21,033 bases of DNA from Escherichia coli (GCF_003334335.1 NZ_QOWQ01000051.1); one strand, 5' to 3'. Counted from the first letter of the stretch, positions 1,612 to 15,602 are shown. The notes: a model not told the origin generated them from the letters alone. Made by a program: numbers and translations.

Positions 1612-4056
1612 TTACGCGGCTTCAACTTTCCGCACTTTCTCCGGCAACTTTACCGGCTTCGTCGCCAGCTCTTCCGGATCAAAGTCATCAACGTTAATAC
1701 TGCGCAGACGGCTTTCTTCAGCTTTCACCAGAATAGCGGCTTCATCTTTATCAATCAGCCCCTTCACCAGCGCGTTGTGCGCCAGTTCATCCAGACGGGT
1801 AAACGGCAGGTTTTTACCCAGCTCTTTACAGATCCGCTGATGAATTGGGTCGGCGGCAATCACATCCACCAGCGCCTCTTCCAGCAAGCCAACCGGATTA
1901 TGCTCGCTCGGCGTCAGGTACTGACCGCGACCAATGCGGGAACGGGTGGCGTTCGGCACTTGTAAAATCTTCGCCACTTTATGATCCAGCTTGTCAGAAG
2001 GTGCCAGATAATGACGTCCGGTCGGGAAGATCACCACATTCAGCAGCCCGGCAACCACGCGGTTCGGGAAGTTTTGCAGTAAATCATCCATCGCCTGTTC
2101 AGCCTGATACAGCGCATCTTGTACGCCCCAGTGCACCAGCGGCAGGTCGGCTTCATTACGGCCTTCGTCGTCATAACGCTTCAGCACGGCAGAGGCGAGG
2201 TAGAGCTGGCTTAAAATATCCCCCAGACGGGCCGAGATGCGCTCGCGACGTTTCAGGCTGCCGCCCAGCACTGCCATCGAGACATCAGAAAGCAGGGCGA
2301 GGTTGGCGCTCAGGCGGTTCAGGTGCTGATAGTAGCGTTTAGTGGCATCGCCGGTTGGCGTGCTGCTGGTTAAACCGCGCGTCAGGCCCAGCCAGAAGCT
2401 GCGAACTTTGTTGCTACCGACGTGACCGATATGTTTGAACAACAGTTTATCGAACGCGTTGACGTCATTGTTCTTCGCCGCTTCCATCTCTTCCAGCACG
2501 TACGGATGGCAACGAATCGCTCCTTGTCCGAAGATCATCATGCTGCGGGTCAGAATGTTAGCCCCTTCAACGGTGATGGCAATCGGTGCGCCCTGGTAAG
2601 CACGCGCCAGGAAGTTGCTTTGCCCGAGCATAATGCCTTTACCGCCGGTAATATCCATCGCATCAATAATCGACTGCTGCCCGCGGTGGGTACAGTGATA
2701 CTTAACGATAGCCGACAGCACGGCAGGTTTTTCGCCGAGCATAATGCCGTAGGTAATCAGCGATGCCGCAGCATCCATCACGTAGGCATTACCGGCAATA
2801 CGCGCCAGCGGCTCTTCAATCCCTTCCATCTTACCAATAGAGATTTTGAACTGACGGCGAATGTGAGCATACGCGCCGGTTGCCAGCGCTACCGATTTCA
2901 CGCCGCCGGTTGAGTTGGAAGGCAGGGTGATGCCGCGGCCTACCGAGAGGCACTCCACCAGCATCCGCCAGCCTTGCCCGGCCATTTTCGGCCCGCCGAT
3001 GATGTAATCGATCGGCACGAAGACATCTTTACCGCGCGTCGGTCCGTTCTGGAACGGTACGTTCAGCGGGAAGTGGCGACGACCAATTTCCACGCCCGGC
3101 GTGGTGGTTGGGATCAGCGCACAGGTAATGCCTAAATCTTCTGCACCGCCGAGTAATTTTTCCGGGTCGGAGAGTTTAAACGCCAGCCCAAGCACGGTCG
3201 CAATCGGTGCCAGCGTAATGTAGCGTTTGTTCCAGGTCAGACGCATCCCCAGCACCTGCTGGCCCTGCCATTCGCCCATGCAGACAATCCCGGTGTCCGG
3301 AATCGCGCCCGCATCGGAACCCGCTTCCGGGCTGGTCAGTGCAAAGCAGGGGATCTCCTGACCACGCGCCAGACGCGGCAGATAGTGATCTTTCTGCTCG
3401 TCAGTGCCGTAATGTTGCAACAGTTCGCCCGGGCCTAATGAGTTTGGCACGCCGACGGTAATCGCCAGGATCCCGCTCACGCCGGAGAGTTTTTGCAGCA
3501 CGCGAGACTGGGCATAAGCCGAGAACTCCAGCCCGCCGTACTCTTTTTTGATGATCATCGCGAAGAAACGATGCTCTTTAAGGTACGCCCACAACTCCGG
3601 CGGCAGATCCGCCAGCTCATGGGTGATCTGGAAATCATTCGCCATCCGGCAGGCTTCTTCTACCGGGCCGTCGAGAAACGCTTGCTCTTCGGCGGTCAGG
3701 CGCGGCTGCGGATAGTTATGCAGCTTTTTCCAGTCCGGCTTGCCCTGGAACAAGTCGCCCTCCCACCAGGTGGTGCCCGCATCAATCGCTTCTTTCTCAG
3801 TGCGCGACATCGGCGGCATCACCTTACGGAAACCGCGAAATACCGGCGCGGAAATCATCGACTTACGCATAGGCGCAAAGTTAAATGGCACGAGGATAAT
3901 GGCCAGAGGCACCAGTACCCACGCCGACCACAGACCAGCAACGCCGAGGGCGGCTGTCCAGGCGAGCAAAATCAGACTGCTGATAAATAAGCTCACGCGG
4001 TGATAGAACAACGCGCCGAGCAGGACAACCGTAGCGAGAATACTCAAAATCATCAT
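1612..4056 (-). CDS. fadE: Acyl-CoA dehydrogenase FadE (fatty acid beta-oxidation)
   Basis: Track ORF is 840 aa from 4134. The ATG at 4056 ([14 protein letters not shown]…) gives 814 aa, matching the FadE length I recall, with N-terminal hydrophobic segments and an acyl-CoA dehydrogenase body. An AGGGG Shine-Dalgarno lies just upstream of 4056. Confidence 0.9.
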
Positions 4057-4880: not shown

Positions 4881-5017
4881 CGTAGGCCGGATAAGACGTT
4901 TACGCCGCATCCGGCATTTGTGCGCTGATGCCTGATGCGACGCTGACGCGTCTTATCATGCCTACAAATCTGTACGCGAACCGTAGGCCGAATAATGCGT
5001 TCACGCCGCATCCGACC
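4881..5017. repeat. REP/BIME cluster (three REP palindromes) between gmhA and yafJ
   Basis: Imperfect palindromes of the E. coli REP type: gtaggccggataagacgtttacgccgcatccggca, gcctgatgcgacgctgacgcgtcttatcatgcctac and a third copy at 4981-5016. Confidence 0.8.
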
Positions 5018-7287: not shown

Positions 7288-7464
7288 CTTGAATTGTAGC
7301 TCAAATGAGCAACAGCGACAATCCATGAGTAATTTAATAAACGGATGTTTTTACATAATTAACTGAAATATATATGTTAATTTTATAATAATGGTTTATT
7401 AAGTTTGTTCAGAAACGATCCGGGATACACTGCAACATTAAAGCATGACCAGCCATTATTGAGT

Positions 7465-8214
7465 ATGTCCTTGCCGTCGATTCCATCCTTTGTATTGTCG
7501 GGATTACTGTTGATTTGTTTGCCGTTTTCTTCATTTGCCAGCGCCACCACATCACATATCTCTTTCAGCTACGCCGCCCGCCAGCGGATGCAAAACCGTG
7601 CGCGTTTATTAAAACAGTACCAAACTCATCTGAAAAAGCAGGCCAGCTATATTGTGGAAGGCAATGCCGAAAGCAAAAGGGCGCTACGCCAGCACAACCG
7701 GGAGCAGATAAAACAGCATCCAGAATGGTTTCCTGCTCCGCTCAAGGCGAGTGACAGACGCTGGCAGGCGCTGGCGGAAAACAACCACTTTTTAAGCAGC
7801 GACCATCTGCATAACATTACCGAAGTGGCGATTCACCGCCTGGAGCAGCAGCTTGGCAAGCCTTACGTCTGGGGCGGTACGCGGCCTGATAAAGGCTTTG
7901 ACTGTAGCGGGTTGGTTTTTTATGCCTACAACAAGATCCTTGAGGCTAAGCTCCCGCGCACGGCCAATGAGATGTACCACTATCGCCGGGCAACGATTGT
8001 GGCGAACAACGACCTGCGCCGGGGAGATTTGCTGTTTTTCCATATCCACAGCCGCGAGATAGCCGATCATATGGGCGTGTATTTGGGCGATGGGCAATTT
8101 ATCGAGTCGCCACGTACCGGCGAAACCATTCGGATAAGCCGATTAGCCGAACCTTTCTGGCAGGACCATTTTTTGGGCGCGCGCAGGATTTTGACGGAAG
8201 AGACGATTTTGTAG
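7465..8214 (+). CDS. yafL: NlpC/P60-family putative peptidoglycan endopeptidase lipoprotein YafL
   Basis: Track ORF starts at a TTG (7405); the ATG at 7465 gives 249 aa with a signal/lipobox-like N-terminus. NlpC/P60 catalytic Cys context GFDCSGLVFYAY and downstream His are present. Confidence 0.8.
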   Translation: MSLPSIPSFVLSGLLLICLPFSSFASATTSHISFSYAARQRMQNRARLLKQYQTHLKKQASYIVEGNAESKRALRQHNREQIKQHPEWFPAPLKASDRRWQALAENNHFLSSDHLHNITEVAIHRLEQQLGKPYVWGGTRPDKGFDCSGLVFYAYNKILEAKLPRTANEMYHYRRATIVANNDLRRGDLLFFHIHSREIADHMGVYLGDGQFIESPRTGETIRISRLAEPFWQDHFLGARRILTEETIL

Positions 8215-8296
8215 GACGGATAAGGCGTTTACGCCGCATCCGGCAGTTGTACGCAGGTGCCTGATGCGACGCTGGCGCGTCTTATCATGCCTACGA
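8211..8296. repeat. REP pair (BIME) between yafL and rayT
   Basis: gtaggacggataaggcgtttacgccgcatccggca overlaps the yafL stop, followed by gcctgatgcgacgctggcgcgtcttatcatgcctac. Confidence 0.8.
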
Positions 8297-8389
8297 GCCC
8301 GCGAATATTTGCGAGCCGCTTTCCCGATATAAAACAACCTCATTGCCAACCTTTCCTTTTCTTCTTACCGTTGAGAAAAAGGAGTCGCC

Positions 8390-8887
8390 ATGTCTGAATA
8401 TCGTCGTTATTACATCAAGGGGGGAACATGGTTTTTCACGGTGAATTTACGAAATCGTCGAAGCCAACTTTTGACCACCCAGTACCAGATGCTCCGTCAC
8501 GCCATTATTAAAGTTAAGCGAGACAGGCCTTTTGAAATCAACGCCTGGGTCGTTTTGCCAGAGCATATGCACTGTATCTGGACATTACCTGAAGGCGATG
8601 ATGATTTTTCCTCGCGCTGGCGGGAAATTAAAAAGCAATTTACCCATGCTTGTGGATTGAAAAATATCTGGCAACCACGTTTTTGGGAGCACGCCATCCG
8701 CAATACCAAAGATTATAGGCATCATGTTGATTATATTTATATAAATCCAGTAAAGCATGGTTGGGTAAAGCAAGTGAGTGATTGGCCATTCTCAACGTTC
8801 CATCGCGATGTCGCGCGAGGGTTATATCCCATCGATTGGGCGGGGGACGTAACGGATTTTAGTGCCGGGGAGCGTATCATTTCATAA
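8390..8887 (+). CDS. rayT: REP-associated tyrosine transposase RayT (TnpA-REP, IS200/IS605 HUH family)
   Basis: 165 aa with the HUH motif (PEHMHCIW) and a C-terminal Tyr region. REP arrays flank it on both sides, the REPtron arrangement. Confidence 0.85.
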   Translation: MSEYRRYYIKGGTWFFTVNLRNRRSQLLTTQYQMLRHAIIKVKRDRPFEINAWVVLPEHMHCIWTLPEGDDDFSSRWREIKKQFTHACGLKNIWQPRFWEHAIRNTKDYRHHVDYIYINPVKHGWVKQVSDWPFSTFHRDVARGLYPIDWAGDVTDFSAGERIIS

Positions 8888-8890
8888 TTG

Positions 8891-9095
8891 TGCGCAGATG
8901 CCTGATGCGACGCTAGCGCGTCTTATCATGCCTACAAACTTGTGCCGGATCGGTAGGCCGGATAAGGCGTTTATGCCGCATCCGGCAGTTATGCGCAGAT
9001 GCCTGATGCGACGCTGGCGCGTCTTATCATGCCTACAAACTTGTGCCTGAACGGTAGGACGGATAAGGCGTTCACGCCGCATCCGGCAGTTGTGC
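8891..9095. repeat. REP/BIME array (at least four REP palindromes) between rayT and lfhA
   Basis: Alternating copies of gcctgatgcgacgct(a/g)gcgcgtcttatcatgcctac and ggtagg(c/a)cggataaggcgtt(t/c)a(t/c)gccgcatccggca. The array ends 16 nt before the lfhA stop. Confidence 0.85.
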
Positions 9096-9110
9096 ACCAA
9101 TGCTGGATAC

Positions 9111-11204
9111 TTACATCAACGCCCCCATAATCTTCAACTCCAGCTCATCCGGCACTTCGTTATACGACAGCACATGCAGCCCCGGCGCAAACAACCTTGC
9201 ATAACGCGCCAGCAAAGGGCGCAGCTGCGGTGGCACCAGCAGCACCGGGTCTTTCCCCGCCGCTTTCATCTGCTCTTTCACCTGTGGCATCGTACTCTGG
9301 AACTGGTTGAGCATATTCGGATCGACCGGCACGCTGTCGAGCATCACTTTCCCGCCCTGTTGCGCCTGATTCACCACGTTGGTCAGCAGATTTTCCAGCT
9401 CATTATTCAGCGTATACACCGTCAGCTCCTGCTTGCGAACGAACGGATGGGTAATGCTGCGCCGCAATGCCAGGCGCACATCGGCCGCCAGCAGAATATG
9501 ATCTTTCGTCACCGTGCTACTGGCGACCAGCACGGTGGCGATGGTGACGATATCGCGCAGGGAAACGCCTTCGGTCAGCAGCGCCCGGTACACTTTCAGC
9601 AACTGGCTGTAATTGAGCGCCGCGCTCAAATCTTCCGCCAGACGCGGTGCCGTCGACGATAAACGGTTATGCAACTGCGTAATATCATCATAGTTAAACA
9701 AATCAGGAATATAGCTGCGCACAATCTTATTTACATGGGTAGCGATCACGCTGGCGCTGTCGATCACCTGATACCCCATATTCAGCGCCTTCGCTTTCTG
9801 CGCCGCCTGGATCCAGGTGACCGGCATCCCGTACGCCGGGTCGTTCCCCTGCACGCCGTCAATCTCGCCGTAGGTTTCGCTGGAGGGCAGGGCCATCAGT
9901 TTATCCGCCGGAATATCCGCTTCATCAGCCTTTATGCCGTTGATGAAAATGGCGTACTGACTGGGCTTAAGGCGGAAGTTTTCCCGAATGCGGATCTCCG
10001 GCAGCAGCACGCCGTTGCCGTCAGAAATCACCTGCCGCACGCCGCGAATCCGCTGGGTGAGCGGGTTACCCTGTGCTTTGTCCACCAGCGCCACCAGTTT
10101 GTAACCGAGGCTTAAACTGATAGGCTCGATCAGCGGAATGGTTTCCCAACTGACCTGCTGCTCGCTGGTTTCGGTGATGGTGCGGGTCAGCGTTTCGAGG
10201 CTTTTCTCTTCCGCCTCCGCCGCCAGCGGCTGTTTGCTCATCCGCCAGCCGGTAAAACCAAGCAGGGCGCTGAACAGCAAAAACGGCAGGTGCGGCATTC
10301 CCGGTACCACCGCCAGCACGAACATAATCCCGGTGGCGGTGTAGAGCACCGACGGGCTTGCCAGCAGCTGGTTACGCACGTCATGGGCGATATCGCCGTT
10401 GTCGCTGACGCGGGTGACGATAATCGCCGCCGCGGTGGAGAGCAGCAGGGAAGGGATCTGCGCCACCAGGCCGTCGCCGATGGTCATCAGCACATACTGC
10501 TGGAAGGCAGCATCGGCGCTCAGGTTGTATTTGAAGATCCCGATACAGACGCCGCCGATCAGGTTGATCGCCAGAATCATCATCCCGGCGATGGCGTCCC
10601 CGCGCACAAACTTCGATGCCCCGTCCATCGCGCCGTAGAAATCGGCCTCGCTGGCAACATCTTTACGCCGGGTTTGCGCCTGCGCCTGGTTGATCAATCC
10701 GGCGTTAAGATCGGCGTCAATCGCCATCTGTTTGCCGGGCATCGCGTCTAAGGTAAAGCGGGCAGAAACCTCGGAAATACGCTCGGCCCCTTTGGTGACG
10801 ACAATAAAGTTGATGATCATCAGGATGATAAACACCACGAAGCCGACGACAAAGTTGCCGCCGATCACCACCTGACCAAACGACTCAATCACCTTACCCG
10901 CCGCGCCCGCGCCGAGATGCCCGTGCAGCAGCACCACGCGCGTAGAAGCAACGTTAAGCGTCAGGCGCATTAAGGTGGTGATCAGCAAAATGGTCGGGAA
11001 CAGGCTGAATTCCAGCGGTCGTTTCGCCGACACCGCCACCAGCAGCACCATCACCGCCAGCACAATGTTGAAGGTGAACAGAATATCCAGCAGCGCAGGC
11101 GGCAGCGGCAAAATAACCATCGCCAGAATACACAGGATCACCAGCGGCACGCCGAGATTGCCGCCGCGCAGCAGCGCGAGGAACGATTTAGTTGTTTTCG
11201 CCAT
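9111..11204 (-). CDS. lfhA: Flagellar type III export apparatus protein, FlhA homolog (Flag-2 LfhA)
   Basis: 697 aa with N-terminal transmembrane segments and the FHIPEP signature region (VILPLPPALLDILFTFNIVLAVMVLL). A GAGGTG Shine-Dalgarno precedes the ATG. Clearly distinct in sequence from what I recall of E. coli Flag-1 FlhA. Confidence 0.85.
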   Translation of the reverse strand: MAKTTKSFLALLRGGNLGVPLVILCILAMVILPLPPALLDILFTFNIVLAVMVLLVAVSAKRPLEFSLFPTILLITTLMRLTLNVASTRVVLLHGHLGAGAAGKVIESFGQVVIGGNFVVGFVVFIILMIINFIVVTKGAERISEVSARFTLDAMPGKQMAIDADLNAGLINQAQAQTRRKDVASEADFYGAMDGASKFVRGDAIAGMMILAINLIGGVCIGIFKYNLSADAAFQQYVLMTIGDGLVAQIPSLLLSTAAAIIVTRVSDNGDIAHDVRNQLLASPSVLYTATGIMFVLAVVPGMPHLPFLLFSALLGFTGWRMSKQPLAAEAEEKSLETLTRTITETSEQQVSWETIPLIEPISLSLGYKLVALVDKAQGNPLTQRIRGVRQVISDGNGVLLPEIRIRENFRLKPSQYAIFINGIKADEADIPADKLMALPSSETYGEIDGVQGNDPAYGMPVTWIQAAQKAKALNMGYQVIDSASVIATHVNKIVRSYIPDLFNYDDITQLHNRLSSTAPRLAEDLSAALNYSQLLKVYRALLTEGVSLRDIVTIATVLVASSTVTKDHILLAADVRLALRRSITHPFVRKQELTVYTLNNELENLLTNVVNQAQQGGKVMLDSVPVDPNMLNQFQSTMPQVKEQMKAAGKDPVLLVPPQLRPLLARYARLFAPGLHVLSYNEVPDELELKIMGALM

Positions 11205-12327
11205 CCAGTTTAAGCACCTCTTTGGGAATGGAAATATGTCTGTTCAGGGCCGGGCGCGGCTGTGCACCCTCGCGCCAGTGTTTCATTTGCAGGACGTAGG
11301 TCAGAACGTGGGCGATGGCCCGGTAAAGCTGAAACGGAATTTGCTGGTTCACCTGGGTGGTGTAGTAAACCGAGCGCGCCAGTCGCGGGAACTCGACCAC
11401 TTCCACCTGATTCTCAGCGGCGACCTGGCGAATATAGAGGGCGATTTCATCGGTGCCTTTCGCCACCACAAACGGCGCGGCGGCGCGCGACGAGTCATAC
11501 TGCAACGCCACGGCGTAGTGGGTCGGGTTGGTGATCACCACGTTGGCTTTCGGCACCACTTTGCGAATTTGCCCCATCGCCAACTGCCGTTGCAGACGCC
11601 GCACGCGCGCCTTCACTTCCGGCTTGCCTTCCTGGTTTTTATACTCTTCTTTCAGCTCCTGTTTGGTCATCTTCAGCCCTTTGGTAAACAGGGCTTTCGC
11701 CAGCGGCACGTCGATTAACGCAAAGAAGATAAACAGGATGACAAAGTTGCGCATCACGCAGGCGTAGAGCGATAAACCCTCATTCATCGCCAGTTTGAAC
11801 GGTAGCGCCTGCAGGCCGAGAAAGGCGGCAAAGTTATTGTGCAGGCTTACCCACAGCATCACCAGCACCACCACCGACTTCACCGTCATCTTTCCCGTTT
11901 CCGCCAGATGTTCACTGGAAAACAGCCGCCCAATGCCTTTTAACGGGCTGATTTTGCTGAAATCCGGGAGGATTTTTTTCGGCAGAAACAGCCAGCCGCC
12001 GGGCACCAGCGAAGAGAGTAGCGCGGCAGCGGGCATCGGCAGCAAGGTGAGAATAAACTTGCCGAGTATTAACAGGTGATGGCGCAGAAACTGGCCGATC
12101 ACCTCCGGGTTATTAATCTCCTGCGCGTACTGATGCACGCTGATAAAACTCTCGCGCACAAAATCGGCATACCACGGGAAGCTGCTGGAGATCACCACAA
12201 ACGCCGCAAACAGGCTCGCCGCCAGCCCCATATCCTTCGAGCGCGGCAGTTGCCCCTCTTCACGCGCTTTACGCAGCTTTTGCGCCGAGGGTTTTTCTGT
12301 TTTTTCTTCGCTGCTGCTATCCGCCAT
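11188..12327 (-). CDS. lfhB: Flagellar export switch protein, FlhB homolog (Flag-2 LfhB)
   Basis: 379 aa with an FlhB-like N-terminus (…EKTEKPSAQKLRKAREEGQLPRSKD) and the conserved NPTH autocleavage motif (VVITNPTHYAVAL). Its stop overlaps the lfhA start by 17 nt. Confidence 0.85.
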   Translation of the reverse strand: MADSSSEEKTEKPSAQKLRKAREEGQLPRSKDMGLAASLFAAFVVISSSFPWYADFVRESFISVHQYAQEINNPEVIGQFLRHHLLILGKFILTLLPMPAAALLSSLVPGGWLFLPKKILPDFSKISPLKGIGRLFSSEHLAETGKMTVKSVVVLVMLWVSLHNNFAAFLGLQALPFKLAMNEGLSLYACVMRNFVILFIFFALIDVPLAKALFTKGLKMTKQELKEEYKNQEGKPEVKARVRRLQRQLAMGQIRKVVPKANVVITNPTHYAVALQYDSSRAAAPFVVAKGTDEIALYIRQVAAENQVEVVEFPRLARSVYYTTQVNQQIPFQLYRAIAHVLTYVLQMKHWREGAQPRPALNRHISIPKEVLKLDGENN

Positions 12328-13099
12328 AGTGACCTTTCAGCGCGTCGAGTTGCTGCAACACAAAATTCGCCAGATGCAGATAGTGATCCGGCAGGTTGTA
12401 GAGCAGGGTGGCAAAGCAGACCAGCCCCGCCAGCATGTTGATGGGAAAACCGAGTGAAAAAAGGTTCAGCGGCGGCGCAATGCGGTTGAGCAGGCCAAAG
12501 CAGCCCTGCACAATCAGCATGATAAAAGTGGTTGGCAGCGCCAGCAGCGATGCGGACGCCAGCACCCAGCTAAAGGCCAGCGCGATGGTGCGCAGGGTTT
12601 GCGGATGCAGCGCGTTGCCAATCGGCCAGTAGGTAAAGCCCTTATACAGCACACTCACCAGCAGCAGATGCCCGTCCATGGCAAAAAACAGCAGGATCGC
12701 GTAGACGTTGATGAGCTCCGCCAGCACGGTGGTCGATGCGCCACTGCTCGGGTCGTTCATCACCGCCATGCTCATCCCCATATTGAACGAGAGAATTTGC
12801 CCGGCCAGCTGTAGCGCCAGAAACAAAAACTGAAACATCAGCCCGAATAACATGCCCCATAAAATTTGCTCCACCGTCAGGATCAGGCTGTTGAGTGAAA
12901 GCAGGTCGTGGGGAATGGGATGCGGAATTAACGGCGTGATGATGATTGCCAGCGCCAGCGACAAAATAATCCGCACGCGCACGGTCAGGGCGCTGTTATC
13001 CAGCACTGGCACATAGCGCAGAAACGCCATAATGCGCACAAAGGGAAACCACAGCCCCAGCGCCAGATCCATCAGTTGCGTAACGTCGCTTGTGCGCAT
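12317..13099 (-). CDS. lfiR: Flagellar export gate protein, FliR homolog (Flag-2 LfiR)
   Basis: Polytopic membrane protein. The start at 13099 (MRTSDVTQLMDLALG…, 260 aa) sits 2 nt upstream of the lfiQ stop codon; the track offers an upstream start at 13150 (277 aa) that would lie inside lfiQ. Confidence 0.75.
   Translation of the reverse strand: MRTSDVTQLMDLALGLWFPFVRIMAFLRYVPVLDNSALTVRVRIILSLALAIIITPLIPHPIPHDLLSLNSLILTVEQILWGMLFGLMFQFLFLALQLAGQILSFNMGMSMAVMNDPSSGASTTVLAELINVYAILLFFAMDGHLLLVSVLYKGFTYWPIGNALHPQTLRTIALAFSWVLASASLLALPTTFIMLIVQGCFGLLNRIAPPLNLFSLGFPINMLAGLVCFATLLYNLPDHYLHLANFVLQQLDALKGHYGG

Positions 13100-15485: not shown

Positions 15486-15602
<117 letters not shown>

Follow-up and report, generated by a model that had tools for sequence, protein, structure and literature searches.

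Results

Gene order and REP content of the locus

The window analysed here is a stretch of 21,033 nucleotides from an Escherichia coli chromosome, carrying yafV, fadE, lpcA, yafJ, dpaA, dinJ-yafQ and yafL, followed by the first half of Flag-2 (lfhA, lfhB, lfiR onward). In the annotation, rayT sits between the yafL core block and lfhA (Table 1), which bears out an initial annotation that had placed a REPtron, rayT flanked by REP arrays, at the boundary between the core block and Flag-2. The first Flag-2 gene, lfhA, is intact, with a 697-codon open reading frame whose stop codon occupies 9111-9113. The closest complete genome, that of strain 720632 (L006), shares 99.95% identity over window positions 78-20957; internal stops are annotated in its lfhA and fliH, and an IS1 adjoins its lafA.

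Table 1. Position of rayT, the REP elements and the neighbouring genes in the window.
Feature	Position	Strand	Basis
BIME cluster Y+ Z2- Y+, between lpcA and yafJ	4882..5017		consensus scan
yafL (C40 peptidase), left neighbour	7465..8214	+	RefSeq annotation of identical DNA (L001 12066-12815 = window 7465-8214)
REP type Y, first of left (5′) BIME	8211..8245	+	consensus scan, hairpin
REP type Z2, inverted relative to the Y copy, completes left BIME	8258..8294	-	consensus scan, hairpin
rayT (yafM, tnpA-REP), 165-aa HUH/Y1 ssDNA nuclease and strand transferase	8390..8887	+	4ER8_A identity, NF047646
REP type Z2, first in right array	8899..8935	-	consensus scan, hairpin
REP type Y, second in right array	8953..8987	+	consensus scan, hairpin
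REP type Z2, third in right array	9000..9036	-	consensus scan, hairpin
REP type Y, fourth and last in right array	9054..9088	+	consensus scan, hairpin
lfhA (Flag-2 FlhA homologue), convergent with rayT, first Flag-2 gene	9111..11204	-	ORF and annotation
BIME Z2+ then Y-, divergent intergenic region between the lfiM-side operon and the sigma-54 activator gene (lafK)	15520..15602		scan; naRNA4

We detected REPs by consensus scans, using Hamming distance and blastn-short. The 21-kb window holds 11 REPs, six of which lie inside 885 bp (8211-9095). Scan matches comprise five Y and four Z2 copies, compared with none in 100 dinucleotide-preserving shuffles. One BIME lies to the left of rayT and two lie to the right, giving the order Y+ Z2-, rayT, Z2- Y+ Z2- Y+. 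Alternating inverted REPs separated by short linkers are the arrangement of BIME-2 elements, and neither Z1-type REPs nor L linkers occur in the rayT-flanking BIMEs. The left pair is located 96-179 nt upstream of the rayT start and the remaining four copies 12-201 nt downstream of its stop. The earlier description of a REP pair on the left and an array of at least four on the right therefore stands, the right-hand number being exactly four. The 16 nt previously given between the array and the lfhA stop become 22 nt when counted from position 9088, where the last REP ends; the earlier limit of 9095 takes in 7 nt of linker-like sequence.

As single-stranded DNA, all six flanking REPs fold into a hairpin with a 2x2 internal loop and an unpaired 5′ GTAG (-9 to -11 kcal/mol; z-scores -2.7 to -4.3). 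The left Z2 and the Z2 copies on the other side of rayT are direct repeats of one another, and the left 37-mer (8258-8294) is identical to that at 9000-9036. The Y-Z2 units also match Rfam naRNA4 (RF02564) above the gathering threshold, with 73.3 bits for 8214-8291 and 77 bits for 8956-9033. This family derives from REP325 BIME units. A promoter and terminator scan returned no intrinsic terminator, and promoter-like sites were no more frequent than in shuffled sequences. Positions 8211-8242 correspond to the exact 32-mer, GTAGGACGGATAAGGCGTTTACGCCGCATCCG, that was co-crystallised with TnpA-REP (oligonucleotide sequence from PMC3479197). In this first REP, the TAG of the GTAG (8211-8214) is at the same time the stop codon of yafL (8212-8214), so the RayT recognition motif overlaps the end of a coding sequence.

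The flanking REPs are members of a genome-dispersed family: their Y and Z2 types are found again at 4882-5017 and at 15520-15602, and a query including the REPs finds 8-48 places per genome, among the matches listed, in all 5426 complete E. coli genomes. The recurrence of these REP families had been noted before at both sites, the second with a start at 15486, where only a short ATCAGGCA remnant is present. The Z2+ copy of the 15520-15602 BIME carries a 1-nt deletion, and the unit scores 85.9 bits against naRNA4. Six of the seven Flag-2-positive strains read, some of them rayT-less hicAB strains, have this Flag-2 control-region BIME in the same place. Strain E7-1N7 lacks it, and its yafL-lfhA spacer is also free of REPs.

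RayT and its identity with the K-12 protein

In genomes that match window 7400-9700 at 100% identity, RefSeq labels 8390-8887 'REP-associated tyrosine transposase RayT'. Each of the 165 amino acids of the protein is the same in chain A of PDB 4ER8 ('TnpArep', E. coli MG1655; 100% identity), and the protein scores 179 bits against the NCBIfam equivalog NF047646 (REP_Tyr_transpos; cut-off 80). It contains the HUH motif H59-M60-H61 and the catalytic tyrosine Y115 (roles from PMC3479197), which together confirm the previous assignment as a HUH tyrosine transposase. The match to Pfam Y1_Tnp is marginal (E = 0.082), indicating that IS200/IS605 enzymes are only distant kin at the sequence level; it is the NCBIfam and PDB searches that settle the identity of RayT.

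In vitro, RayT binds the folded single-stranded REP together with its 5′ GTAG, cuts at CT dinucleotides in the neighbouring inverted REP or linker, forms a covalent tyrosyl-DNA link via Y115 and transfers strands between such sites (PMC3333891, PMC3479197). Recognition requires the unpaired 5′ GTAG and an internal mismatch in the hairpin (PMC3333891, PMC3479197), and a C-terminal extension of the protein supplies E161 to the active site (PMC3479197).

Alignment of K-12 MG1655 to the window reveals a single mismatch in 9415 bp, at window position 7500. Because this mismatch lies in yafL, the REPtron described here is the K-12 REPtron base for base, and the DNA spanning the 3′ side of yafL, rayT, the REPs and the 3′ part of lfhA is 100% identical between the two. 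The identification of the REPtron is correct, and the element was already known to the nucleotide.

Population variants of the yafL-lfhA spacer

At a coverage of at least 80%, 3569 of the 5426 complete genomes (range 3569-3575) carry rayT, with a median copy number of one; roughly a third lack it. A two-thirds fraction with rayT had already been reported (74/110; Ton-Hoang 2012, PMC3333891). Among the 14 loci that we read, rayT, where present, is always positioned between yafL and lfhA and always has one Y+ Z2- pair to its left. The right array ranges from two REPs up to 7-9, the upper figure depending on the scan threshold.

Other genomes carry different spacers. In some, hicAB replaces the whole REPtron, without REPs. 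Two Flag-2-positive strains (L008 3675-3776, L016 2114-2212) instead have a 97-bp REP-free spacer and no rayT. This spacer begins with GTAGGACGG at the yafL stop, which corresponds to the first 9 nt of the Y REP, and contains a G+C-rich inverted repeat, CTCCCCAAAGGGGCGAGGGGA. The 97-bp-spacer and hicAB alleles have in common a different last lfhA codon and stop (…TTGAGTTGA vs …TTGATGTAA), indicating that the variable cassette extends into the final lfhA codon.

Strain D10 lacks rayT and has an uninterrupted alternating Y/Z REP array in the spacer. Its first Z REP is a chimera, one end showing GGTGTCTGATG, the signature of the left BIME, and the other CATGCCGACAAAACCGC, that of the right array. 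This puts the crossover inside the REP, rayT having been lost by exchange between the flanking, directly oriented Z REPs, and places the endpoints of the rayT deletion in D10 within directly repeated flanking REPs. Ton-Hoang 2012 (PMC3333891) had already described a variable right array, B2 strains from which rayT was precisely excised and B1 strains with hicAB as a replacement.

In the O157:H7 strain M1300706002 (L009 3991-4488), an internal stop interrupts rayT, which is annotated as a pseudogene, and the right array has shrunk to a single Z2-Y pair. This pseudogene, together with the absence of rayT from about one third of genomes, shows that the gene is dispensable. In strain SCU-387 (L003 9346-9690), a minus-strand 'hypothetical protein' coding sequence in RefSeq runs through the REP array and is probably an annotation artefact of the repeats. 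Plasmid-labelled records match rayT at 9 places, lfhA-lfhB at 15 and the K-12 junction at 17. RAYT genes have not been seen on plasmids (PMC8049555), and these records may be F-prime-like replicons or mislabelled.

The Flag-2 deletion

REP-mediated recombination had been proposed as a plausible route for deletions or rearrangements at this locus, including the K-12-type loss of Flag-2. To map the K-12 junction, we aligned K-12 with two sequences, the window and the near-identical strain 720632, which is Flag-2-positive. The breakpoint lies inside lfhA at window 10814/10815, and the sequence resumes inside lafU, 36.1 kb away, with a 3-nt microhomology (GAT) at the join. No REP is found at either end of the K-12 deletion, the closest being 1.7 kb off, with its end at 9088. 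The breakpoint matches the published description of the deletion, within the lfhA and lafU reading frames (De Maayer 2020, PMC6993521). This fhiA/lfhA'-mbhA/lafU' scar had been reported earlier by Ren et al. in 2005, as cited through the same article.

Of the 5426 complete genomes, 4087 contain a 301-bp probe spanning the K-12 junction as one contiguous match, and a further 1290 are Flag-2-positive, containing window 10400-12400 in full. About 49 genomes (~1%) fit neither the intact nor the K-12-type state. The K-12 junction thus accounts for ~99% of genomes without the window 10400-12400 part of Flag-2, and the frequencies of 75% deleted and 24% positive compare with 76/100 and 24/100 in the earlier survey (PMC6993521).

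In the loci sampled, the state of the spacer does not follow that of Flag-2. All six Flag-2-negative loci read keep the 1719-bp lfhA fragment whatever their spacer type, and hicAB-type spacers, which have no REPs, also carry this remnant. Among the 14 loci, rayT, hicAB and rayT-less or REP-free spacers are each found in both Flag-2 classes. Furthermore, Flag-2-negative K-12 and the Flag-2-positive window show 100% identity in the right-hand array. Since the deletion endpoints fall outside REPs and these two genomes have the same array despite their different Flag-2 status, REP-mediated loss of Flag-2 is refuted for the common, K-12-type deletion. What remains of the wider proposal that REPs promote rearrangements at this locus is rayT loss and array copy-number change, both published (PMC3333891).

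Two apparent exceptions were set aside. BLAST matches ending at ~9096-9103 looked like REP-bounded Flag-2 deletions, and reading the loci revealed longer REP arrays that split the alignment; strain SCU-387 is Flag-2-positive and OZ197100 has the ordinary K-12 scar. Matches ending at 415 and 424 suggested two junction alleles, and represent the same junction with a zero-net-score BLAST extension of 9 nt containing 3 mismatches.

Sequence divergence changes sharply across the breakpoint. To its left, K-12 differs by 1 mismatch in 9.4 kb from the window and the near-identical 720632. To its right (lafU, dinB, yafNOP), K-12 and 720632 diverge by 2.3% over 3.3 kb, then by about 1% to phoE, and are nearly identical beyond. 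From this pattern, a recombination-tract boundary seems to lie at the breakpoint or inside Flag-2. The presence/absence allele of Flag-2 could have been swapped recently in phylogroup A by homologous recombination, rather than reflecting one ancient deletion, in which case a tract end could lie at or near window 10814/10815. The ~49 odd genomes could also include rare Flag-2 rearrangements that end in the rayT-side REP array. Both the recent exchange in phylogroup A and REP-ended rearrangements of this kind are tentative suggestions, which we think rather doubtful.

Discussion

Proposed working of the REPtron

Positions 8211-9088 make up the canonical E. coli REPtron, in which a single-copy, vertically inherited rayT is bracketed by its cognate REPs in BIME-2 units of alternating, oppositely oriented Y and Z2 copies. 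In cells, BIME copy number would change through the activity of RayT, through RecA-dependent recombination of the ~84-bp direct Y-Z2 repeats, or both. These processes would vary the right-hand array, and exchange between the directly oriented Z2 REPs on either side could delete rayT. The REPtron itself stays put, with no movement as a whole unit, and its place beside Flag-2 is positional only, the common Flag-2 loss being an intragenic lfhA-lafU deletion without REPs. Taken together, we consider this combination of a canonical REPtron, array recombination in the cell, immobility as a unit and purely positional adjacency to Flag-2 very probable.

Array variation and rayT loss could also arise by RecA-dependent recombination or replication slippage, without RayT. 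A broader reading holds that these REPs are ordinary intergenic BIMEs in host physiology, to which RayT is irrelevant, and that the REPtron is an IS200/IS605-like fossil. BIMEs may protect the 3′ ends of the yafL, rayT and lfhA mRNAs, bind gyrase or HU, or give rise to naRNA-like transcripts. Consistent with such roles, the arrays lie at the 3′ ends of these three genes, of which rayT and lfhA are convergent, and the naRNA4 scores of the Y-Z2 units exceed the Rfam threshold. Dispersed REPs are still kept in the third or so of genomes without rayT, and the Flag-2 control-region BIME persists in rayT-less hicAB strains. A mobilome-sequencing preprint on K-12, moreover, found no circular BIME or rayT DNA, so excised BIME circles have not been seen in vivo. 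However, these very BIMEs are substrates of the identical protein, which cuts and recombines them in vitro (PMC3333891), and RAYT-bearing E. coli genomes hold more REPINs than RAYT-less ones (PMC8049555). We regard this broader reading as rather unlikely, though host roles for BIMEs and RayT activity on them are not mutually exclusive.

Two further readings give the locus a more mobile or more disruptive part, and we find both highly improbable. The REPtron might be an autonomous IS200/IS605-type element inserted at the edge of Flag-2 and moving as a unit, as its HUH/Y1 gene with subterminal hairpins, like those of IS200/IS605 elements, would suggest. Autonomous insertion sequences occupy multiple or variable locations as a mobile unit, whereas rayT is present in one copy per genome and in the same yafL-lfhA position in every rayT locus read. 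The weak Pfam Y1_Tnp match also argues against this reading, and the literature reaches the same conclusion (PMC3333891, PMC8049555). It is just as hard to sustain the model behind the original proposal, in which REPs of the REPtron recombined with REPs elsewhere to produce the K-12-type deletion. REPs are known join-points for other rearrangements. They are present both here and inside Flag-2 (15520-15602, with further sites in the full cluster), and array size varies among strains. Against this, the junction at 10814/10815 has only GAT in common and the nearest REP is 1.7 kb off; one contiguous junction is found in 4087/5426 genomes, with 1290 more Flag-2-positive. Flag-2-negative K-12 and the Flag-2-positive window share a 100% identical REPtron, and REP-less hicAB spacers bear the same 1719-bp lfhA remnant. 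The published deletion, too, is within the lfhA and lafU reading frames (PMC6993521).

As a discovery the locus carries little weight, for it is the model REPtron behind RayT biochemistry and the crystal structure, and its population variants (the variable right array, rayT excision and hicAB replacement) were published as early as 2012. What is useful here is a negative result: REP recombination can be dropped as the cause of Flag-2 loss in K-12 and most E. coli. About 99% of Flag-2-negative complete genomes are accounted for by one lfhA-lafU junction, intragenic and far from REPs, and in the sampled loci there is no link between the state of the REPtron and that of Flag-2. REP-to-REP exchange does explain the loss of rayT and changes in array copy number, both already known.

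Comparison with known systems

The K-12-type Flag-2 scar is not part of the REPtron, and the window carries the undeleted allele. Among transposases, the Y1 TnpA proteins of the IS200/IS605 family (e.g. IS608) share with RayT the HUH motif and one catalytic tyrosine, as well as recognition of imperfect single-stranded DNA hairpins with a 5′ tetranucleotide beside the hairpin. In contrast to these, rayT is immobile as a unit, occurs once per genome, matches Y1_Tnp only marginally and encodes a protein with a reported E161-bearing C-terminal extension (PMC3479197).

Closer relatives are the REPIN-RAYT systems of Enterobacteria (group 2 RAYTs), in which a vertically inherited RAYT, likewise in single copy, lies between inverted REP doublets whose family is dispersed over the genome. 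Such systems were reportedly described by Nunvar in 2010 and by Bertels and Rainey in 2011. The present locus combines RAYT identity, REPs on both sides, a dispersed REP family, GTAG hairpins and a single copy between yafL and lfhA, and differs from these systems in nothing of substance; the asymmetry of the E. coli doublets (Y vs Z2) was noted already in PMC8049555. The closest counterpart is the REPtron of K-12 MG1655 (Ton-Hoang 2012; Messing 2012, PDB 4ER8), with the same protein, DNA, architecture and crystallised first REP. The two differ only in their right context, which is the lfhA'-lafU' scar in K-12 and full-length lfhA followed by the Flag-2 genes here.
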